64,000 nt of DNA. Source: Balanoglossus misakiensis. Taxonomy: Eukaryota; Animalia; Hemichordata. The DNA lies in contig CM082588.2 of NCBI GenBank assembly GCA_040954595.2, positions 10,896,844 through 10,960,843 of the forward strand, read 5' to 3'. The translations under genes and the position numbers were made by a program. The notes beneath the pieces were generated by a model. It saw only the letters and a list, made by a program, of their open reading frames with translations, did not search any database and was not told where the DNA came from. Positions 11,717-21,330 of the stretch are shown here, in pieces; positions within the stretch are counted from its first letter, which is position 1; the number at the start of each line of letters is the position of its first letter.

Positions 11717-13489
11717 TTGGAAGGGACTGCTTTAAAAGATTATGTTAGAGAGGAACAAATTAGACAGAGGGATCTTAGGGCTACTGAGAGAGAGGAGCAG
11801 AGAGAAGATAATAGGCGGCGCGAGGAACATGAGAGAGAGATACTGAAAATGCAAATTCACTTACAAGAATTAAAATTGAAAGGGGAAAATACAGAACAGC
11901 AGGTTACTGAAAATAATTTGGCCAAAGCGCGTGCTCCGAGACTACAGGGTTTTCGTGAGGATGTTGATGATATGGATGCGTACCTTCAACGTTTTCAGCG
12001 CTACGCCACTGCTCAGAAGTGGGAAAAAGATGACTGGGGGTGAATCTCAGTGCATATTGTTACAAGGTAAGGATGTATCCACATACAACCAAATGCCTGC
12101 AGCGTCTGCAAATAATTATGATGAATTGAAACCAGAGTTATTGAGGGCTTACCAGTTAAGTGAGGAGAGTTTTCATGACAAGTTCCGTTCGTGTATGCCA
12201 CATTATGATGAAAGTGCTCAAAAGTTTATGGACCGTATTGGTGACTATTTGGGCAGATGGGTAGAACTGGCTGGTACTCCAAAGACGTACAATGGGCTTA
12301 CAGATCTGTTACTTCGAGAGCAGTTTATTGGAGTATGTTCCAGAGACATGGCAATGTTCATTAGAGAGCGACGGCCAGAGAATGTCCAAGAGATGGTATC
12401 TACTGCCTCAAAATACTTAGATGCCCGAGGGTGGTGGAAACTGCCAAGTAATGCCAAGAATAATCCAAGGAGCCAGCCGACAGCAAATACCAAGCCTGCT
12501 GTATATCCAAATCAAGTAAATAAGTTTAATAACAAAACCAATGGTTCCCATGTTTTTAAAGGTACGTGCTTCGTATGTGGTAAAGGTGGTCATATGGCCA
12601 AAGATTGTAGAAGTAAGCCAAAGATGCATAAGACGGCGGTATTGTTAACTGAAGAAGATAGAAACTATCCACCTAAACAAGAATGTACACATTGGGGCAA
12701 CCGTCAACAGCCCAGGGGACTAGACACTGGTTATGCATGTATGGTGGTAGCAATGGAAATAGATAAAACAGATGCAACACTGAATAAGGAGTTCGTGTTA
12801 CCATGTGGTCATAAGCTCCCAGTGATGAGTGCTGCTTGTAGTGCCCATGGAGTGAAGAAGATGCCGGTAATGAAGGGATTGCTCGATGGTAAGCTGGTTA
12901 GCGTTTTGCGTGATAGTGGGTGTAGTAGCGTGGTAGTTCGAAGAAGTCTGGTGTCAAGTAATCAGCTGACTGGTGAGTACAGGACGTGTGTTCTGATAGA
13001 TGGGACTATTAGAAGAGTACCTGTAGCCTCTATAAAAGTTGATACCCCTTACTTTGTCGGTGATGTTACTGCACTGTGCATGATGAACCATGTGTATGAT
13101 TTAATACTGGGCAACATTGATGGTGTATCTGACCCTTCGAATCCTGATACTACATGGCAGGAACCATTGCCGACATGTAGACTGTGTACAACTGTTGGAC
13201 AGGTACCAGGTTTAGCAAATGCTGTGGAGACCAGAGCCCAGAAGATAGCCAACCAAAAACCAATCAGAGAGCTTAAAGTACCTAAAGCTGTTGGTGAAGT
13301 GGTGATGCCAGGGAAGCTTCAACAAGCTCAAGAAGAAGACTCCACTCTTGACAAACTACGTGAGAAGGCAATTTTGGGTGACGAGAAAGTGACTAGGAAT
13401 GGAGGTAGGTTGAAGTTCATCATGAAAGATGGGATCCTGTACAGAGAGTTCAATTCGCCAATGGTCCAATTTGGTGAAAAGCTGTTACA
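11717..13489 (+). pseudogene. Gmr1 gag-protease (frameshift near 12040)
   Basis: Coiled coil, DDMDAYLQRFQRYA, SCAN-like DLLLREQF...FIRERRPENVQEM, CFVCGKGGHMAKDC, VLRDSGCS and YDLILGN. The ORF tail after 13489 reads into the inserted transposon. Confidence 0.88.
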
Positions 13490-13531
13490 CACTGCGGGAA
13501 ATACTAGAGCTATGTTGGGCAGTATTCCGCG
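13490..13531 (+). repeat. Left bipartite terminal inverted repeat
   Basis: CACTGCGG, 18-nt spacer, then TGGGCAGTATT at 13516-13526, followed by CCGCG. Confidence 0.85.
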
Positions 13532-13573
13532 AAGCGCGAGCTCCCATGTTCACCATAGCAACGCATTGCCAAG

Positions 13574-14224
13574 ATGGCGGCGCCCGTGTTGATCGATGCC
13601 GAGAAAGTTATAAAACGCAAATTGCGAGAGGCAAAATCTGTGCTTAAACGTAAAAAATGCGTGTCGGACAATCTGTATATACACCCACTCTTTGATGAAC
13701 TTGAGGATGTGACAACAAGGGCCATATTTCGAAACGACAAGCTGTCAAAGGACAAGATTCGTTGGCGTGACGTCGCCGTATTTCCCATGTTTCAGCGTGA
13801 TATGACCTACTGGCAGAAGACCTTCTACGCTCGGCTGTCAACATCCCCGTCGTTAAGGTCACCATGGCAAAGCAGCTTTACACGACAAATGCCGAGGGAA
13901 GTATTTGATGTTTTTCATCAGTTTGCTACTCGGACCGGTTTTGGTATCGACGAGAAGACCTCCAGGGCTATCATAACCTTGACCTTCACAAGTTCCTTGA
14001 AGCTATTGTATGTGATACGGAAAGGTTATTGCTACGAGGGCGCTATCGGTCAGCATACAGAGAATATCCTAGAGAAGAAAGTCCGTGGAAAGAGGGTAGC
14101 TGTTATATTCACACCTGAGAAGCCCTGTGTTGTGAAATATTTTATCAACAGGGAGACTGTTGCTGTTAGATTCAGCTTTGGTGCCTGGAACAAACATGGA
14201 ATCCCATTACATCCAGAGAACTGA
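13574..14224 (+). CDS. Intact 216-aa orphan protein carried by the transposon (putative accessory subunit)
   Basis: Uninterrupted ORF, strong start context ccaagATGGCGGCG, located 84 bp inside the left end; AATAAA at 14353-14358. No motif recognised. Confidence 0.75.
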   Translation: MAAPVLIDAEKVIKRKLREAKSVLKRKKCVSDNLYIHPLFDELEDVTTRAIFRNDKLSKDKIRWRDVAVFPMFQRDMTYWQKTFYARLSTSPSLRSPWQSSFTRQMPREVFDVFHQFATRTGFGIDEKTSRAIITLTFTSSLKLLYVIRKGYCYEGAIGQHTENILEKKVRGKRVAVIFTPEKPCVVKYFINRETVAVRFSFGAWNKHGIPLHPEN

Positions 14225-15076
14225 ACCCTATTGATTTTTCACACTGATTCAACCCATCTGAGGAACATTTTTTTCCTGATCTGTGGCACATGTTGTTCAG
14301 TGTAGATGTATCAGTCTGTCAAGACAGTCCTCTCACAATTGACATATATTCAAATAAAAAAAGGAAAATTAGAAGACTCAAAAATTCATCACTTGTCTTT
14401 ATTTATCTACATTCAATACAAATGAACAGATAATGTTTACAAAATTTCCTAAACTGTAAAATTCTTTTTTTCCATCATTATTGTAACATAGATTTTTCAT
14501 TAGTTTCAGAAAAAAATGTATGTTACCTACAATCAACATTGATAAGTCAATCAAAACTGCTCATCTAACAGTTAACCAGGATTTCTGGTCTAAATTTAAT
14601 TAATATTTACAATTAATTCCATGACAAAATTTATAAATATCAAGAATTTGATGAGACTTAATTCTTTATTTTTTCACAAATTCATTAAAATTTCGTGCAG
14701 GTGCAGAATAAACAACTCCTCAAGAAAAATGTAAAACTTTTCTATCAAGCTTATGTATGTCATACATTTTAATTTTGCAAAGCACTGCAATCACTATACG
14801 ATTAAGGGTTTATTCACAATACTTAATAGTGGTAAGATAAGTTTCAATTTCCCTGTCCCCATACATGCACACATATACAAAATCCCATAAGAAACATATC
14901 ATCTCCAGTTCAAAAAGTGTGAATTCATGTGATTTGTGATCTCCATTTTTATTAAATGCAGCTCTCAACTACAGATGAGTCTTTATAATTCTGTAATGTA
15001 ATTAATACTATAGTTATCCTTTAATTCTAAAGTAGCACACAGTGACACAATCCACTGTTTCAAATTCAATCATTGT

Positions 15077-17317
15077 TCACAGCATAAGTTTCTTGAGTTT
15101 ATTTGATATTTTACCAGTGACAGCTGCTTTTTTTATGTCATCCATAATTGGGTCAACACATATTTCACAGGCAGTCATTGTTTCATTTTTTTAAATTGCC
15201 ACACATACAGTAGCCTGCATTCTCATAATATCGACTGGGAATGTATTTTTCTTTTTCTTTAAGCTCAAATTGACCTACATTTGCATTTCTATAGTTGTCA
15301 GCTTTTGGACTTTTGTTCCTCAGCCAAAAAAGCATCACATATTCGTGTCGAAATATGAGGGCCCACCTATTTTGAGGTGTAGAATTTTCACTGAATTCTA
15401 GCAGGCGTAGATGCTTTGCCTCTCTGCCTTCCATTGTGTTTAGGCCTAATCCCAGACTGAATTGCTTATAGATACTAGTGGTGTGTTTTGGGACTACATA
15501 ACCAATGTGCCACACAGTATTATTGACATTCAGAAACAGGGAATGTAGATTAAAGTACCACCGACACTTATGCCTAAGTACAAGCAAATCTCCCTCATTT
15601 ATGTTGAATCGTGAGAATAACAAAGTGATATCTCTAAGCAAGATACCAGTATATGTGTAGAGAGCTAATTGAGCCCGACGCTTTGGTCTGTCTGTATCGC
15701 TTCTCAATGCTAATACCAATCCTATGAAATGCCAAGCAAGTTTGCGAGACTCCTCACCAGTGAAGCGATAAACCACATTAATGTTGGCATTTGACTTGAC
15801 ACTATTTTCATTGAAGTATTTTACAATCTTATTATACAACTTTCCAGCTTTTACTTGATATTTTAGGGCAGACAGGAATTTGTACAGATATGACTCGTTA
15901 GGTAGATTCTCAATTTTAACTCCATTTTCACGACCCTTTTCCGAAGTGTGGGCAACTGCGTCAATCAGTAATCGTTGGAAGTAGTATTGCCATGCATTGT
16001 TCTTTAAATGCAATGGCTCAGCCTTGGCACAATCAATAAATCTACCCAACGGTGGTACAAATTCCTGTCTTGACCTCAGACTGGCTATAAATTGTGTGAT
16101 TTTGGGTCGCACTGTTTTGGGCTTTCCAGTTTTAATTTTCTTAGTTGACTTCAACTTTTCAACAGCTTCTGCATCTTTAATTCTTTTCTGATATTTCCAT
16201 TCATCCCACTTCTGACCTGGGCCAATTTCTGCTCCAATACAATCAATATCATTTTTGGAACGTTAGCAAATGAGCTGAAATACTTTGCTGCATTGCTTAG
16301 TTCTCCAGACACACTGGCCAATCCCTTCTGATCAAAGGGTAAAAGTGACACCTGAAAAGTTACATCAAGACTGCCAACTTTATATTTACGTTTCTCAATA
16401 CACTCAAGGTCTTTTGACAATGCAATTGCAAATTCAATCATTATGGGGTCATCCTCTTTTATGTTTGCCCCTAATAGGAGAAAATTGTGGTCTGGGCTAG
16501 CAACACGGTGGGTCACATTCAAGAAACTAACTAGCCATGCAGTGGCCTGTCCATGTTTGCCAAACGGAGCCCCGTCAGCACCTATACTGATTTGAAATGA
16601 GCCCTCCTGTTTACCGAACCAGTTAAGAATATCAGGCTGTGTTTCCCCCATATTTAAATATAAACTGGCAATCTTAATAAGCAACTCCTCAGGGTTTCTT
16701 TTTAAGCCGACTTGTTTGCCTTCAGATGATATAATTGGCTCAAGATTTCCAATGTCAAGGTTACTTACATACTGTACAACTTTTGTGTATGGGAGCAGTC
16801 TTGGTATTCTACAGCCAGAATGAATTTCTAATGCTTTCCTAGGATGTTTCAAGTTGGAGAACATCTGAAGTTCACTCTGCCTCAGACAGTTATATTTTCG
16901 TTTGGATAGTACTCCGCCCTCATACATAGTTCTGACACTCCTCACCAAATTGTTCTCACTTTTCTCAAATTTACTGATGTATTTATCAAATACTGATGGC
17001 ATTACTTTTTTACTGATTTGGGGAGAGGTTCTGAAGAATGTTTTCATTTGGTCAGGAGTGGCAGAATTAACAAGAGTATACCACAAACCATCAAGTGCTG
17101 CTTTTGGTGGATGTAGTACATTCGGTTTATTTATACCTTTGGCTGGGCTTACATCTGTAGTTGCTACATGAATATTTATGGCTGCTGATAAGGTTTCACA
17201 CCTACGTTCATACTGTTGACGTCGCGACAGCTTCAAAGATTCACTATTATCTGCACATACTTCAGTGTTCTTGTGGACCCATTTAGAGCGTTTCACATTA
17301 ACAACATCAACAGGAAT
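15077..17317 (-). pseudogene. Main exon of a RAG1/Transib/Chapaev-like DDE transposase (two 1-bp frameshifts, near 16260 and 15190)
   Basis: ISIGADGAPFGK (D1, 16574-16576), LPFDQKGLASVSG (D2, 16331-16333), EPLHLKNN, YRFTGEESRKL and GLGLNTMEGREAKH (E, 15420-15422). Acceptor tctttcag| at 17318-17320. Frame repair joins the 381-aa and 323-aa ORFs and extends to TGA at 15077-15079. Confidence 0.8.
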
Positions 17318-17670
17318 CTGAAAGATTAAGTGTGTGATAAATATATACTAATTAGAATATAATCATTATATATAAAATAAAATCTTCTTACAAGTTAATC
17401 ATTAATTTAAATGTCCTTGATAAGAAATACACACGTGTAGCCTGTATTTTTCTGACAACTTCTGCAATAAAAATCCTAAAAAATATACATAGTTTGTTGG
17501 AAAACCTAGATGTTTTGCATCAAAGCTGAACCCATTTTGTTATCATTGTTTACACAGGATCATGTGACATGAAGTTCAAAAAGCGAATTTGGGCTAAAAT
17601 TTGAAGAGGATTTATACAAATCTGAGATTTTTAAAATTATGACTAAGTCTATTTATCTGATCTAGCTTAC

Positions 17671-18114
17671 CTTTCTCTTATTATTCTTTGTAGCTAAGAT
17701 CTCACAAATCTTACTGTTCTTCTTCTCTAGTCTAGCTAGCTGGGTTGAGGATCTTTTTACTAGTCTCCTAGCTGCACTCAACTTATTCAACTTATCCTGA
17801 ATTATGCTTTCTTCCTCATCTCTCTTTCTCTTTCTCTGTCTACACCACTCTCCTAAGTTAAACCTGTGTTTAGTCTGTCCTCTCTTTGTTCTAACTACCA
17901 ATAGGTTGTTGGCCACGCTCCCAGACAAAGATCTAGTCTTCAATTTCTCCTGATATAGTTGTTGTAAACACTTCTCTTCAGCTACCTGTCTCGCTATCTT
18001 TTGGTCCTTTGCCCACTGGCCTATGTTGAAGTAACTTTTCCCTTTTCTATTCGGCATAACAATAGACAAACTTTTAAGAAGTGCGCTACTCCTGTTGAAT
18101 AGTTTGCCCCACAT
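17671..18114 (-). CDS. Upstream coding exon of the transposase (basic, helical N-terminus)
   Basis: gccATG at 18114. The donor AAG|gtaagc at 17671/17670 splices in phase 0 to the acceptor at 17317. An upstream acceptor ttttcag| lies near 18131, with candidate 5'UTR donors near 18266 and 18834. Confidence 0.7.
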
Positions 18115-18920
18115 GGCTCTAAATCTATACCTGAAAAGGGTGAACAAGAGAAATATCTTTACAATAATTATCTATCCGAGGGAAGCAAAAACAAAACACC
18201 TGCTCATTATACTTCCTCCAGAAATTGAGGTCAAAGGTGACATAGAAAGAATGTGGGTAACCTTACCATAACAATCTCGCCCATTCATTTTTTTCTTATT
18301 TCGTTTTCACCCTCGAATTTCCAGCGAATTATATCAAGAATATATTTTAGCACAAACTATTGGTTTCTGATTTTTCAGTTACGGTCTTATTTTCTGTCAA
18401 TTCTATGAACAATATCACCATGTCGCCGAAAATTCGAAGCGCCGCCATTACAATCAATGTAACCCGTGCTGCTGCCAAGGAACACACAGGGTCGTATATT
18501 TTCGCTTGGTATGATTTCGTCATATTGCTTGTAGCAGCATTTTAAACATGGAATCCTATGTTTACGTATAAAAGACTAAATTCGTATGGTTTTCAAATTG
18601 AAAAAAACAATTCTGTGAAGCTGAATCGTTGTAATTTTTAGTGTTTGTTTATGGTTGCTTAGGACGGCTTCTGCTATAGCAACGGCCAGGGACTGTCAGC
18701 GGGTGATCAAAATGTTCAAGTTATTTGGCTGATACACATAAATAACACAGCAGAATCGCAACTTTATTTCATATTGTCTCTGACATCTTGCTAATTTTAC
18801 TAAACAAAACTTGGAATAAAGCAATATTACTCACCGAATTATGCTGTGCATCGACAGCTGTGTTCGATCGCGAACGCCATTACTGTGTCTAATTAAATAT
18901 TCATGAGCTTCATAGGCTGC

Positions 18921-18963
18921 CACGGAAATACTGCCCATAGGTGGCGTCGTTCAAGCTGTAGTG
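18921..18963 (-). repeat. Right bipartite terminal inverted repeat
   Basis: The reverse complement reads CACTACAG, 18-nt spacer, TGGGCAGTATT (18927-18937), then TCCGTG. Confidence 0.85.
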
Positions 18964-18964
18964 A

Positions 18965-20970
18965 CAGGTGGTGGTTCCCAGAGTGTATCGTAACCAGGTG
19001 ATGAGACTAGCCCATGAATCAGTGCTGGGTGGTCACCACGGAACTCACAAGACCACAGACAAGATCCTCAGCAACTTCGTTTGGCCTGGGCTAACATCAG
19101 ATGTTTCCCGTTACTGTCAGTCCTGTGATTCATGTCAACGGACACAACCAAAGGGACGGGTGACCAAGGTACCACTTGGAAGTATGCCACTAATAGATAT
19201 CCCTTTCCTACGTATTGCAGTAGACCTGGTTGGCCCTATTCATCCATGCACTGAACGCAAGAATAGGTACATACTTACTGTTGTTGATTATGCAACACGC
19301 TATCCGGAGGCTGTTGCATTGACTAACATTGATACCAAGACTGTTGCAGAGGCGCTCCTGGACATCTACTCAAGAGTGGGGTGTCCACGTGAAATTCTGA
19401 CAGATCAAGGAACTCAATTTACATCAGATGTGATGCGTGAGGTCAGCCGGCTTTTGTCTATAAAGCAGATGACTACCACCCCATACCACCCAGCATTCAA
19501 TGGTCTAGTGGAACGGTTCAATGGTACATTGAAACTCATGCTCAGGAAGATGTGTGAGGAACGTCCAGCATATTGGGATCGTTATCTGAATGCTTTACTA
19601 TTTGCCTACAGAGAAACGCCTCAATCGAGCACAGGATTCTCTCCGTTTGAGTTACTTTATGGGAGGAGTGTGCGTGGTCCAATGGCTATCTTGAAAGAAC
19701 TATGGACTGGAGAGATCAGTGAACCAGAAACCAAAACGACTTATCAATACATCCTTGATCTTCAAAAGAAATTAAAGAAGGCATGCGATTTAGCAAGACA
19801 AGAACTGAAGATATCACAAGGCAAATACAAGTCCTACTACAATAGAAAGGCCAAATGGAGGAAGTTCAACAAAGGTGACGAGGTGTTATTGCTACTACCT
19901 ACTGACCATAATAAACTACTTATGCACTGGAAGGGTCCTTTTCCAGTGGTGGAGAAAGCGAGCAATATGGATTACAAGATTGACTTTGGTCATAGGGTGA
20001 AAACATTCCATGCCAACCCGTTGAAGAGGTACTATCGAAGAACTGATCAGCTAGATGAAGTATCAGCTGGACTTCTTGAGATTGTGTGTGTATCTGTGAT
20101 AGATGAGCAGAGTTATGAATCTTCAGAAGTACAAGAGAACACAGGGGTTAAAGTAAACGATGACTTACTGCGGGTTCCTGCATTCAAGCAGAAAGAATTT
20201 GCTGCAGATGTGAATGTATGTGACAACTTGTCAGACATACAGAAGCAAGTGGTGAGGAGGTTGCTGATCAATTACAAAGATATGTTAACTGATATTCGTG
20301 GTAACACCAACCTGGGTTTCCATGACATCAAGTTGATGGATCCAACACCAGTATGCAGTAGGCCATACCCCATCCCTCATGCACTCCGTGAAGCAGTGAA
20401 AGATGAAGTCAAAACGATGATTAAGATGGGAGTAGCTGAACCTTCAGAGAGTCCATATGCTGTTCCACTGGTAATGGTGAAGAAATCTGATGGGTCCAAT
20501 CGTTGTTGTGTTGACATGAGAAAGCTCAATCGCATAACAGTGTTTGATGCAGAGCCTACACCAGACCTGAGTGAGCTTTTTGCTTTTTGCTAAGTTATCC
20601 AAGGATCACTATTTCACTAAAGTAGATCTCAGCAAAGAATATTGGCAAGTCCCGTTGACTGATAATTCTAAACAATTGACGGCATTTATCACGCATGATG
20701 GGCTATACCAATTTATCAAAATGCCTTTCGGACTTGTAAATAGTGCTGCGACTTTTAGCAGAATTATGAGGAGATTGTTAAGAGATATGAAGAACGTAGA
20801 CAACTATATCGATCACATACTGATCCACACTGCATCATGGGAAGAACATATCAAGACAATTACAGATTTGATGAGCAGACTACGAAAGGCAAAGTTAACA
20901 GCGAGACCAACTAAGTGTTATGTGGGTTATGAGCAGATCGATTTCCTGGGTCATGTGGTTGGTCATGGTG
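18965..20970 (+). pseudogene. Gmr1 integrase followed by a truncated reverse transcriptase
   Basis: AHES..GGH...CDSC, IAVDLVGP, TDQGTQF, NGLVERFN and WKGPF, then RT motifs SPYAVP, VDMRKLN, KVDLSKEYWQ, MPFGL and YIDH (YxDD broken). A 7-bp gcttttt duplication causes a frameshift near 20580. Confidence 0.9.
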
Positions 20971-21084
20971 AACTAGTCCTGTTTCAAAATGACCTACATT
21001 ACAGGTCCTATGCACACGTATTACATGTTCTGATTGGTTTATCCACTTCTCTAAGGTCCACTTGCGGCTCGCTGATTGGAGGGA

Positions 21085-21330
21085 CCTTATGTGTTAGGTC
21101 TTATTACTATGTATTATTCACCAGACCTTGTAGGTTAGGTCTTATTACAATGCATTATTCACTTTACAGCTCCCTGATTGGTTAATGTGTAGGTCTGGTC
21201 CTCCAGTGTTCACTGCCTCATTATGCAGGACCTTGTAGGTTAGGTCTTATTAATATGTATTTATTCACCATACAGCTCCCTGATTGGTTAACGTGTCAGT
21301 CTGGTCCCCCCAGTGTTCACTGCCTCATTG
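21085..21330. repeat. Short tandem duplication (~110-bp unit)
   Basis: gaccttgtaggttaggtcttatta...acagctccctgattggttaa...cagtgttcactgcctcatt occurs twice. Confidence 0.7.

Follow-up and report, generated by a model that had tools for sequence, protein, structure and literature searches.

The window, meaning the whole stretch of DNA analysed here (64,000 nt), is eukaryotic DNA of 32% GC in which a small gene remains open next to a broken transposase gene. The question that this locus raises is what such a gene is for: whether it is a working part of a transposon, whether it acts on the transposon or on the host from the side, or whether it is there by accident.

An intact gene lies just inside one end of a DNA transposon

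We found that the 216-codon gene (stop included) occupies positions 13574–14224 on the + strand, with its ATG at 13574 and a TGA ending at 14224, which confirms the coordinates, strand, start and stop of the intact 216-aa open reading frame (ORF) in the original prediction. The GC content is 44–49% within the ORF as compared to 23–31% immediately downstream. The gene lies in a DNA transposon of 5,474 bp (13490–18963; 5'-CACTG...TAGTG-3') that interrupts the pol frame of a Gypsy-type retroelement, and copies of ACA abut both ends as a target-site duplication (13487–13489 on the left and 18964–18966 on the right). The upstream part of the Gypsy frame (11961–13489) encodes a SCAN-like gag, a zinc knuckle and an aspartyl protease; the downstream part, from 18965, encodes integrase zinc-binding and core domains and then reverse transcriptase. 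Integrase before reverse transcriptase is the order found in Gmr1-like Gypsy elements. There is no second copy of the transposon in the 64,000-nt window, and contigs of two DNA runs (from one sample, probably the source of the assembly) gave no joint across the element.

When the two ends of the element are compared, they align in register: CACT is followed by the subterminal block TGGGCAGTATT at positions 27–37 of each end, with the left block at 13516–13526 on the + strand and its inverted partner at 18927–18937, at equal distance from both termini. The in-register alignment places the left end of the insertion at 13490 and thus confirms that the ORF starts 84 bp inside it, as had been proposed. 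The start codon is surrounded by the YY1-site-like motif AAGATGGCGGC (13571–13581, + strand), which we take to match the YY1 consensus; the start-codon context that had been singled out is present, and this is its sole exact match in the window. It is the only place in the window that matches AANATGGCGGC exactly. A candidate polyadenylation signal, AATAAA, is present at 14353–14358 on the + strand, as stated before, but the hexamer is common in AT-rich DNA and no commoner here than chance, with 116 occurrences in the window and a shuffle mean of 185 (fewer than in shuffled sequence). Because it is indistinguishable from chance in the window, we give this AATAAA no weight as a signal.

On the opposite strand, a transposase remnant extends over 15183–17347 (– strand) in two overlapping frames (17347–16151 and 16262–15183). 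The frames overlap at 16151–16262, with the frame change near 16254–16260, and an extra base is found at 16258 in one contig of DNA run X2, which comes from the sample itself. The remnant carries the motifs GADGAPFGK, PFDQK and NTMEGREAKH, aligns over the core of relatives of 700–820 aa and stops after CGNLKK, where most relatives continue for about 40 residues more. A 169-codon open frame at 17662–18171 (– strand), coiled-coil-like and basic, is a possible N-terminal transposase exon; it resembles the N-terminal extension of relatives of 807–821 aa only loosely, and 314 nt of 27% GC lie between it and the transposase core.

The original prediction had drawn attention to the ORF staying open while the transposase and the host retroelement are broken. 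The observation is true, since the transposase frame is broken and pol is split, but it is weak as an argument: with about two lesions in about 2.2 kb of transposase, we estimate that a 0.65-kb ORF would be spared by chance about half the time, so the open frame of the window copy is weak evidence and the family-level data have to carry the case. The window copy also departs from its family, with A at position 86, where 80% of members have R, and L at position 212, where 83% have Q. Because the transposase frame is broken and the ORF deviates at these two strongly conserved positions, the window copy of the transposon is probably dead.

The ORF belongs to a family of unnamed proteins

In an exhaustive phmmer search of 1.84 billion proteins, we found 81 representative relatives of the ORF at E ≤ 1e-3, 12 of them at E ≤ 1e-10 and the best at E = 4.3e-17. 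The gene had been described as an orphan, a description that these relatives overturn; a best match of this strength among so many proteins also means that the ORF is not a chance open frame. Nearly all relatives are 140–250 aa long and none carries a family name; their 90%-identity clusters have up to 232 members. For 75 of the 81, the top-scoring alignment runs out at query residues 209–215, mostly at the match's own C-terminus or a few residues away from it. Named relatives are each a 'hypothetical protein', from Pocillopora damicornis and from Actinostola sp., and one relative makes up the C-terminal end of a tau/MAP gene model from the nemertean Tubulanus polymorphus, which may be a transposon exon drawn into the gene model. 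A word-based homology search at near lengths gave 84 candidates, none of which scored. In an alignment of 41 members, P97, F111, G203, W205, N206 and H213 are near-invariant.

The gene is linked to the transposase and held by purifying selection

To locate the gene relative to the transposase, we fetched metagenome loci with the transposase alignment alone (411 pattern matches, 172 of them confirmed; we kept the best 80) and then sought the second gene with the HMM of the ORF family in six-frame ORFs of the 80 loci (E ≤ 1e-3). An ORF relative is present in 29 of these best 80 of the 172 confirmed loci. In all 29 carrier loci, it lies downstream of the transposase on the opposite strand, convergent as in the window, with gaps of 277–2,125 bp, and this homology and linkage check bears out the proposed link between the two genes. 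Most of the loci that lack the second gene do so because their sequence ends too early: the gene is present in 25 of 29 loci with at least 1.5 kb downstream, in 18 of 21 with at least 2 kb and in 13 of 15 with at least 3 kb. The four loci that have at least 1.5 kb and no gene give no match even at E ≤ 10. In three of them (L039, L077 and L072) the transposase is fragmented, and the fourth (L059) has 1,848 bp downstream, under the largest gap seen.

At 90% identity the 29 copies form 17 clusters, and their identity to the window protein is 21–34%; the place and orientation of the gene beside the transposase are constant across these 17 sublineages. The two genes diverge together, with a Spearman correlation of 0.52 over the 66 pairs of 12 dereplicated lineages and of 0.77 over all 231 pairs, which are non-independent. 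Transposase identity among the lineages compared goes down to 35%, and the second gene is the faster-evolving of the two. About 21 of the 29 copies have full-length open frames with start and stop; two of the others are interrupted by the end of a contig, and some six more are truncated or split.

Between sublineages, the dN/dS (Nei–Gojobori) of the second gene is 0.31 (L001–L040), 0.33 (L006–L076), 0.17 (L015–L078) and 0.22 (L019–L068), and that of the transposase is 0.36 in the one comparable pair (L006–L076); deeper pairs are saturated. The within-lineage pair L021–L046 has a dN/dS of 1.4 from very few changes, and copies within a family are uninformative on selection because they are nearly identical. 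The second gene is held by purifying selection between sublineages (dN/dS 0.17–0.33) and does not evolve neutrally, which was one of the checks that the original prediction had proposed. Taken together, these data show that cut-and-paste transposons of one family in corals and sea anemones have two genes, and that the ORF is the conserved second, convergent one.

Related elements carry a shared motif near both ends

We then compared the ends of the related elements with those of the window copy. On the ORF side, the terminus of the relatives is CACGCCG, CACGCTG or CACACTG and lies 70–106 nt before the ATG, and loci of one family have differing ORF-side flanks, which marks them as separate insertions. 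Blocks of GGGCCATTTC type or GCGCCAT type lie 15–30 nt inside the ends of the relatives. The opposite end could be located in 10 loci through an inverted repeat of 11–25 nt. Perfect 3-bp flanking repeats are present in 3 of the 10 (L015, ATT; L044, AGC; L014, TAG), and matching 3-bp flanks are absent in the other 7. Because L011 and L014, and likewise L006 and L009, have one flank in common and the other flank different, the unmatched flanks suggest mixed assemblies of multicopy elements. Six complete elements in the family are 4.2–7.4 kb long, and no third conserved gene was seen in them. The L015-type element is a natural, intact one and measures 4,152 bp.

The motif AANATGGCG (AAnATGGCG) spans the start codon in 20 of the 21 relatives with a resolved start, and codon 2 is GCG in at least 20 relatives. 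We counted 54 occurrences of the motif in the 448,670 b of loci, as compared to about 10 in shuffles. Most of its other occurrences are on the transposase strand, about 60–65 nt inside the transposase-side terminus of the relatives. In the window, TAATGGCG reads inward from the right end on the – strand (18875–18882), and its ATG is 83 nt away from the right terminus, which mirrors the 84 nt at the left.

A predicted alpha/beta domain of a basic protein

With the family alignment, AlphaFold models the whole protein at a pLDDT of 85.9 and a pTM of 0.75 as three helices and one alpha/beta domain of seven strands; the helices span residues 3–26, 36–53 and 69–87, and strands and helices continue onward to residue 205. 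The C-domain alone (residues 66–216, 72 sequences) reaches a pLDDT of 93.7 and a pTM of 0.87. Accordingly, we divide the protein into a helical N-terminal part (residues 3–53) and a basic alpha/beta domain (about 68–216), and the alpha/beta C-terminal half that had been expected is seen in both models.

The fold of the main domain is predicted to be unlike any solved structure. Foldseek against PDB and BFVD returned nothing at E ≤ 1e-3, and VIA-align of the C-domain against 48,161 representative chains gave Z values of at most 4.7 and no chain at Z ≥ 5; this falls short of the usual best Z of 7–8. When the whole model is used in the VIA search, the N-terminal helical hairpin dominates (Z ≤ 7.3). 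Weak fold rows for the C-domain include the RNase HIII N-terminal domain (Z 3.5–4.6 over 52–53 residues, rmsd 2.1–2.2), the RnlA NRD and phosphoglucomutase domain 4, all of which we take to be TBP-like domains; on the strength of these model-based rows, the TBP-like resemblance is a lead only. At the sequence level, no Pfam family matches more than one of 72 relatives at E ≤ 1, and a PDB sequence search with the family profile gave two chance-level rows only. For the ORF itself there is no kelch, PHD or Myb/SANT match in Pfam at E ≤ 0.1, as had been noted before, nor a match to any other Pfam family.

The C-terminal 150 residues are basic in all 41 aligned members (pI 8.85–10.4), and the first 60 residues range from acidic to basic across members. 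The original prediction had emphasised a basic, NLS-like N-terminus; in the window copy this is correct, with KRKLREAKSVLKRKK at residues 14–28, but an NLS-like cluster is found in only 5 of the 41 members and is not a feature of the family. The conserved basic columns are R87, K168 and K183, together with position 86 (the position that is A in the window copy). The conserved tail consists of G203, W205, N206, G209, P211, Q212 and H213, and reads FGAWNKHGIPLH here as compared to YGxWNxxGxPQH in the relatives.

The transposase family and its possible placement

We ran the 398-aa transposase piece against the longer proteins of the collection and found that it matches 23 proteins of 699–821 aa at E values from 4e-73 to 2e-24, with named relatives in Pocillopora verrucosa, Paramuricea clavata and Actinostola sp. 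The motifs GADGAPFGK, P[AS]DMK and NTMQGREAKH and C-terminal cysteine pairs are found family-wide. No Pfam family matches any of 7 members at E ≤ 0.01; among 22 members at E ≤ 10 there are 12 weak rows and no transposase family, in a scan whose HMMER filters drop most weak matches. There is no PDB sequence match to the transposase, and no RAG1 row appears in its Pfam scan or in the PDB sequence searches. Its nearest named language-model clusters are fragments of the RAG1 RNase-H domain (0.92–0.95, with 165–186 of 256 features in common), a likeness that we treat as a lead only and not as a test. Placement of the transposase in a Chapaev, CACTA or Transib-related clade draws on the ends and on this one language-model lead and is not settled by homology.

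Comparison with known two-gene transposons

The family was compared with the DNA transposons that it most resembles in layout. Like plant CACTA elements (En/Spm, with TnpD and ORF2/TnpA), it is cut-and-paste with a 3-bp duplication and two protein genes. In En/Spm, both products come from one transcription unit. Here, in contrast to CACTA, the host is an animal (cnidarian) and the genes are convergent, with a terminal 5' region for each. The hallmarks of CACTA are CACTA/TAGTG ends, a 3-bp duplication and two ORFs, and full-length elements encode, next to a DDE-type transposase, an ORF2 that in some families aids excision and transposition and whose product is described as a small protein without recognisable domains (PMC4158355). 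The termini CACTA...TAGTG compare with CACTG...TAGTG in the window, where one end is exact, and with CACGC or CACAC in the relatives. A second ORF is likewise found here, in 25 of the 29 loci with at least 1.5 kb downstream, and it is homologous to no named family. Neither protein has a Pfam link to the plant CACTA families.

The 3-bp duplication and the CAC...GTG ends are also shared with Chapaev, for which the literature gives a 3- to 4-bp duplication and invariable 5'-CAC...GTG-3' termini (PMC4079192) and the presence of Chapaev/Chapaev3 transposons (CMC group) in cnidarians (PMC4411706). Chapaev3 elements, as described, are about 1.8–1.9 kb long with one ORF of 485–561 aa and a TWA target (PMC3014272), whereas the elements here are 4.2–7.4 kb long with two genes and with the duplications ACA, ATT, AGC and TAG. 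Transposases of the Chapaev clade have an N-terminal 'Chapa' zinc finger; the conserved Cys pairs noted in the transposase here are C-terminal. We found no published description of a second gene in animal Chapaev/CMC elements, although Repbase entries may hold such consensus elements.

The arrangement of a large transposase and a convergent second gene between CAC-starting terminal inverted repeats (TIRs) is that of RAGL/ProtoRAG; RAG1L and RAG2L are described as convergent tail-to-tail genes between TIRs that start with CAC (PMC7204232). Unlike RAGL/Transib, the window copy and 3 relatives have a duplication of 3 bp and not of 5 bp, and no HMM-level similarity was found between the transposase and RAG1. 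The original prediction had placed the gene in the RAG2 position. This holds for its convergent, tail-to-tail place, which is like that of RAG2L, but not for the protein, which, unlike RAG2 with its six-bladed kelch propeller and PHD finger, has no kelch, PHD or RAG2 Pfam match; by Pfam and the model, the second gene is not homologous to RAG2, and the analogy is one of position and orientation only. PIF/Harbinger elements are two-gene DNA transposons in which a small Myb-like second protein is needed together with the transposase. Our family differs from them in that neither the ORF nor its 72 relatives have a Myb/SANT Pfam match, and in that the ends and the transposase family are other ones.

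Discussion

By analogy with these systems, the ORF product may be an accessory, probably nucleic-acid-binding, cofactor of a CACTA/Chapaev-type transposase at the ends of the element, a reading in which we place about half of our confidence. On this proposal, transcription of the gene would start in the roughly 85–105 bp between the terminus and the ATG, and AAnATGGCG would be a promoter element in common with the transposase gene. The basic C-terminal domain and the conserved C-terminal tail would bind DNA or the transposase, and the helical N-terminal part might mediate self-association. The protein would then be needed for excision and integration, or would strongly promote them, like ORF2/TnpA in plant CACTA elements. 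A more specific version can be put forward only tentatively, and we think it doubtful: the family would act as the DNA-end-binding cofactor of a cnidarian transposase lineage, would be obligatory and have its own fold, the lineage would be related to the RAG1/Transib-CMC clade, and the symmetric AAnATGGCG motif would drive both genes together.

In active transposon lineages, selection would keep a regulator or an anti-host factor in place just as well; other functions have to be weighed against an accessory role in the DNA reaction. One is that the protein acts outside that reaction as an anti-silencing or RNA-binding factor, which binds small or structured RNA and blunts the piRNA/siRNA defence of the host. 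The nearest ESM-Atlas clusters of the ORF, fragments of Argonaute N, L1 and PAZ domains (score 0.93, 126–143 of 256 features), point weakly in this direction, the basic C-domain found in all members fits RNA binding, and the weak Foldseek rows include the RNA-binding RnlA NRD (prob 0.96–0.98, TM 0.32) and METTL16 KA-1 (prob 0.57, TM 0.32–0.39). However, the ESM-Atlas recognition value of 1361 is below the mark of 2300, the Argonaute feature counts are below the 170 typical of true family matches, none of 72 members has a PAZ or ArgoN Pfam match, and no Argonaute-type fold was found by Foldseek at E ≤ 1e-3 or by VIA at Z ≥ 5; we consider this function unlikely. A regulator that limits or times transposition (a repressor or a copy-number control) at the AAnATGGCG motif or at the ends, and that is not a required cofactor, seems to us quite unlikely as well. 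The occurrence of AAnATGGCG both around the start codon of the gene and in the two terminal regions would suit autoregulation, and the protein is small and basic, with a possibly dimerising helical part in the model. This evidence fits a regulator and a cofactor alike; yet a pure inhibitor is usually lost easily, and this gene has been kept across transposases that are just 35% identical.

That the gene is a passenger, either a captured host gene or a chance frame that is open merely through the youth of the copies, is highly improbable. Near-identical copies within families give no test of selection, which leaves room for youth as an explanation when such copies are viewed by themselves, and the Tubulanus polymorphus tau/MAP gene model does end in one relative. 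Against this stand the same place and orientation in 29 of 29 carrier loci and the co-divergence and low dN/dS between sublineages; the Tubulanus C-terminus aside, the few members that have names include no identified host gene. The accessory cofactor at the element's ends therefore remains the reading that we prefer, at the confidence given above, and a share of our confidence goes to none of the readings named here.

The finding adds a conserved, unnamed protein family whose fold is confidently predicted and unmatched, and whose partner transposase family is covered by no Pfam model and is abundant in reef-building corals and anemones. For annotation, the consequence is that cnidarian genomes contain hundreds of transposon genes listed as 'hypothetical proteins' of about 210 aa. 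DNA transposons with two components are rare, and the known ones (CACTA, Harbinger and RAG-like) are each informative. If the second protein is a true cofactor, it would offer a new handle on how CMC/Transib-type transposases locate their ends and a comparison case for the need of RAG1 for RAG2. If it is in addition obligatory and its transposase lineage is related to the RAG1/Transib-CMC clade, the layout of a transposase and a small convergent cofactor between CAC-ended repeats would have arisen repeatedly or would predate RAG2, in the clade that was the source of V(D)J recombination.

Insertion site and host retroelement

The DNA transposon that carries the ORF (5,474 bp, 13490–18963) is inserted in a Gypsy-type LTR retroelement, which we found on both sides of it at 11961–13489 and 18964–21200 and which encodes a SCAN-like gag domain. 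In this host retroelement, the integrase precedes the reverse transcriptase, which is the Gmr1-like order. The reverse transcriptase region likewise spans several frames. Elsewhere in the window there is a large satellite array (27700–62300) with a unit of 78–79 bp and higher-order periods of approximately 107, 157, 185 and 263 bp; the part from 27.7 to 33.6 kb is reversed relative to the part from 33.6 to 62 kb.

Variation among contigs of the sample

X2 is one of two DNA sequencing runs of a single sample, from which the assembly probably derives. The transposase remnant lies on the minus strand in two frames, 17347–16151 and 16262–15183, and one X2 contig has an extra single base at 16258 (depth 4,363 of 41,072) that coincides exactly with the overlap of these frames. 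Copies or alleles other than the one in the window thus vary at the site of the frameshift. Loose contig ends at 17558 and 18706 are reverse complements of each other, indicating that the segment between them is bordered by inverted sequence in another copy. A single X2 contig matches the element from 13488 on and differs in the preceding 8 letters, a hint that another copy of the element may be present at another site. Within the ORF, position 14203 is C in the window and T in the sample's own contigs, a synonymous difference in codon 210.

A relative of the ORF family and a motif near the element ends

In a Tubulanus polymorphus protein (P0088, XP_074652023.1), residues 459–609 show a relationship to the ORF family at E 2e-4. 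The gene model is of the tau/MAP type and contains three tubulin-binding repeats; the related stretch lies at its end and reflects either exonisation of a transposon gene or an error of annotation.

An ATGGCG-containing motif is present at 13571–13581 and 18875–18882, at nearly equal distance from the two element ends (84 vs 83 nt). The motif was also observed in metagenome loci that contain relatives of the element (L006, L011, L014 and L050–L056); in L050–L056, it forms a close inverted pair approximately 1.2 kb upstream of the transposase. The motif may serve as a promoter element common to both ends, or as a site for protein binding.
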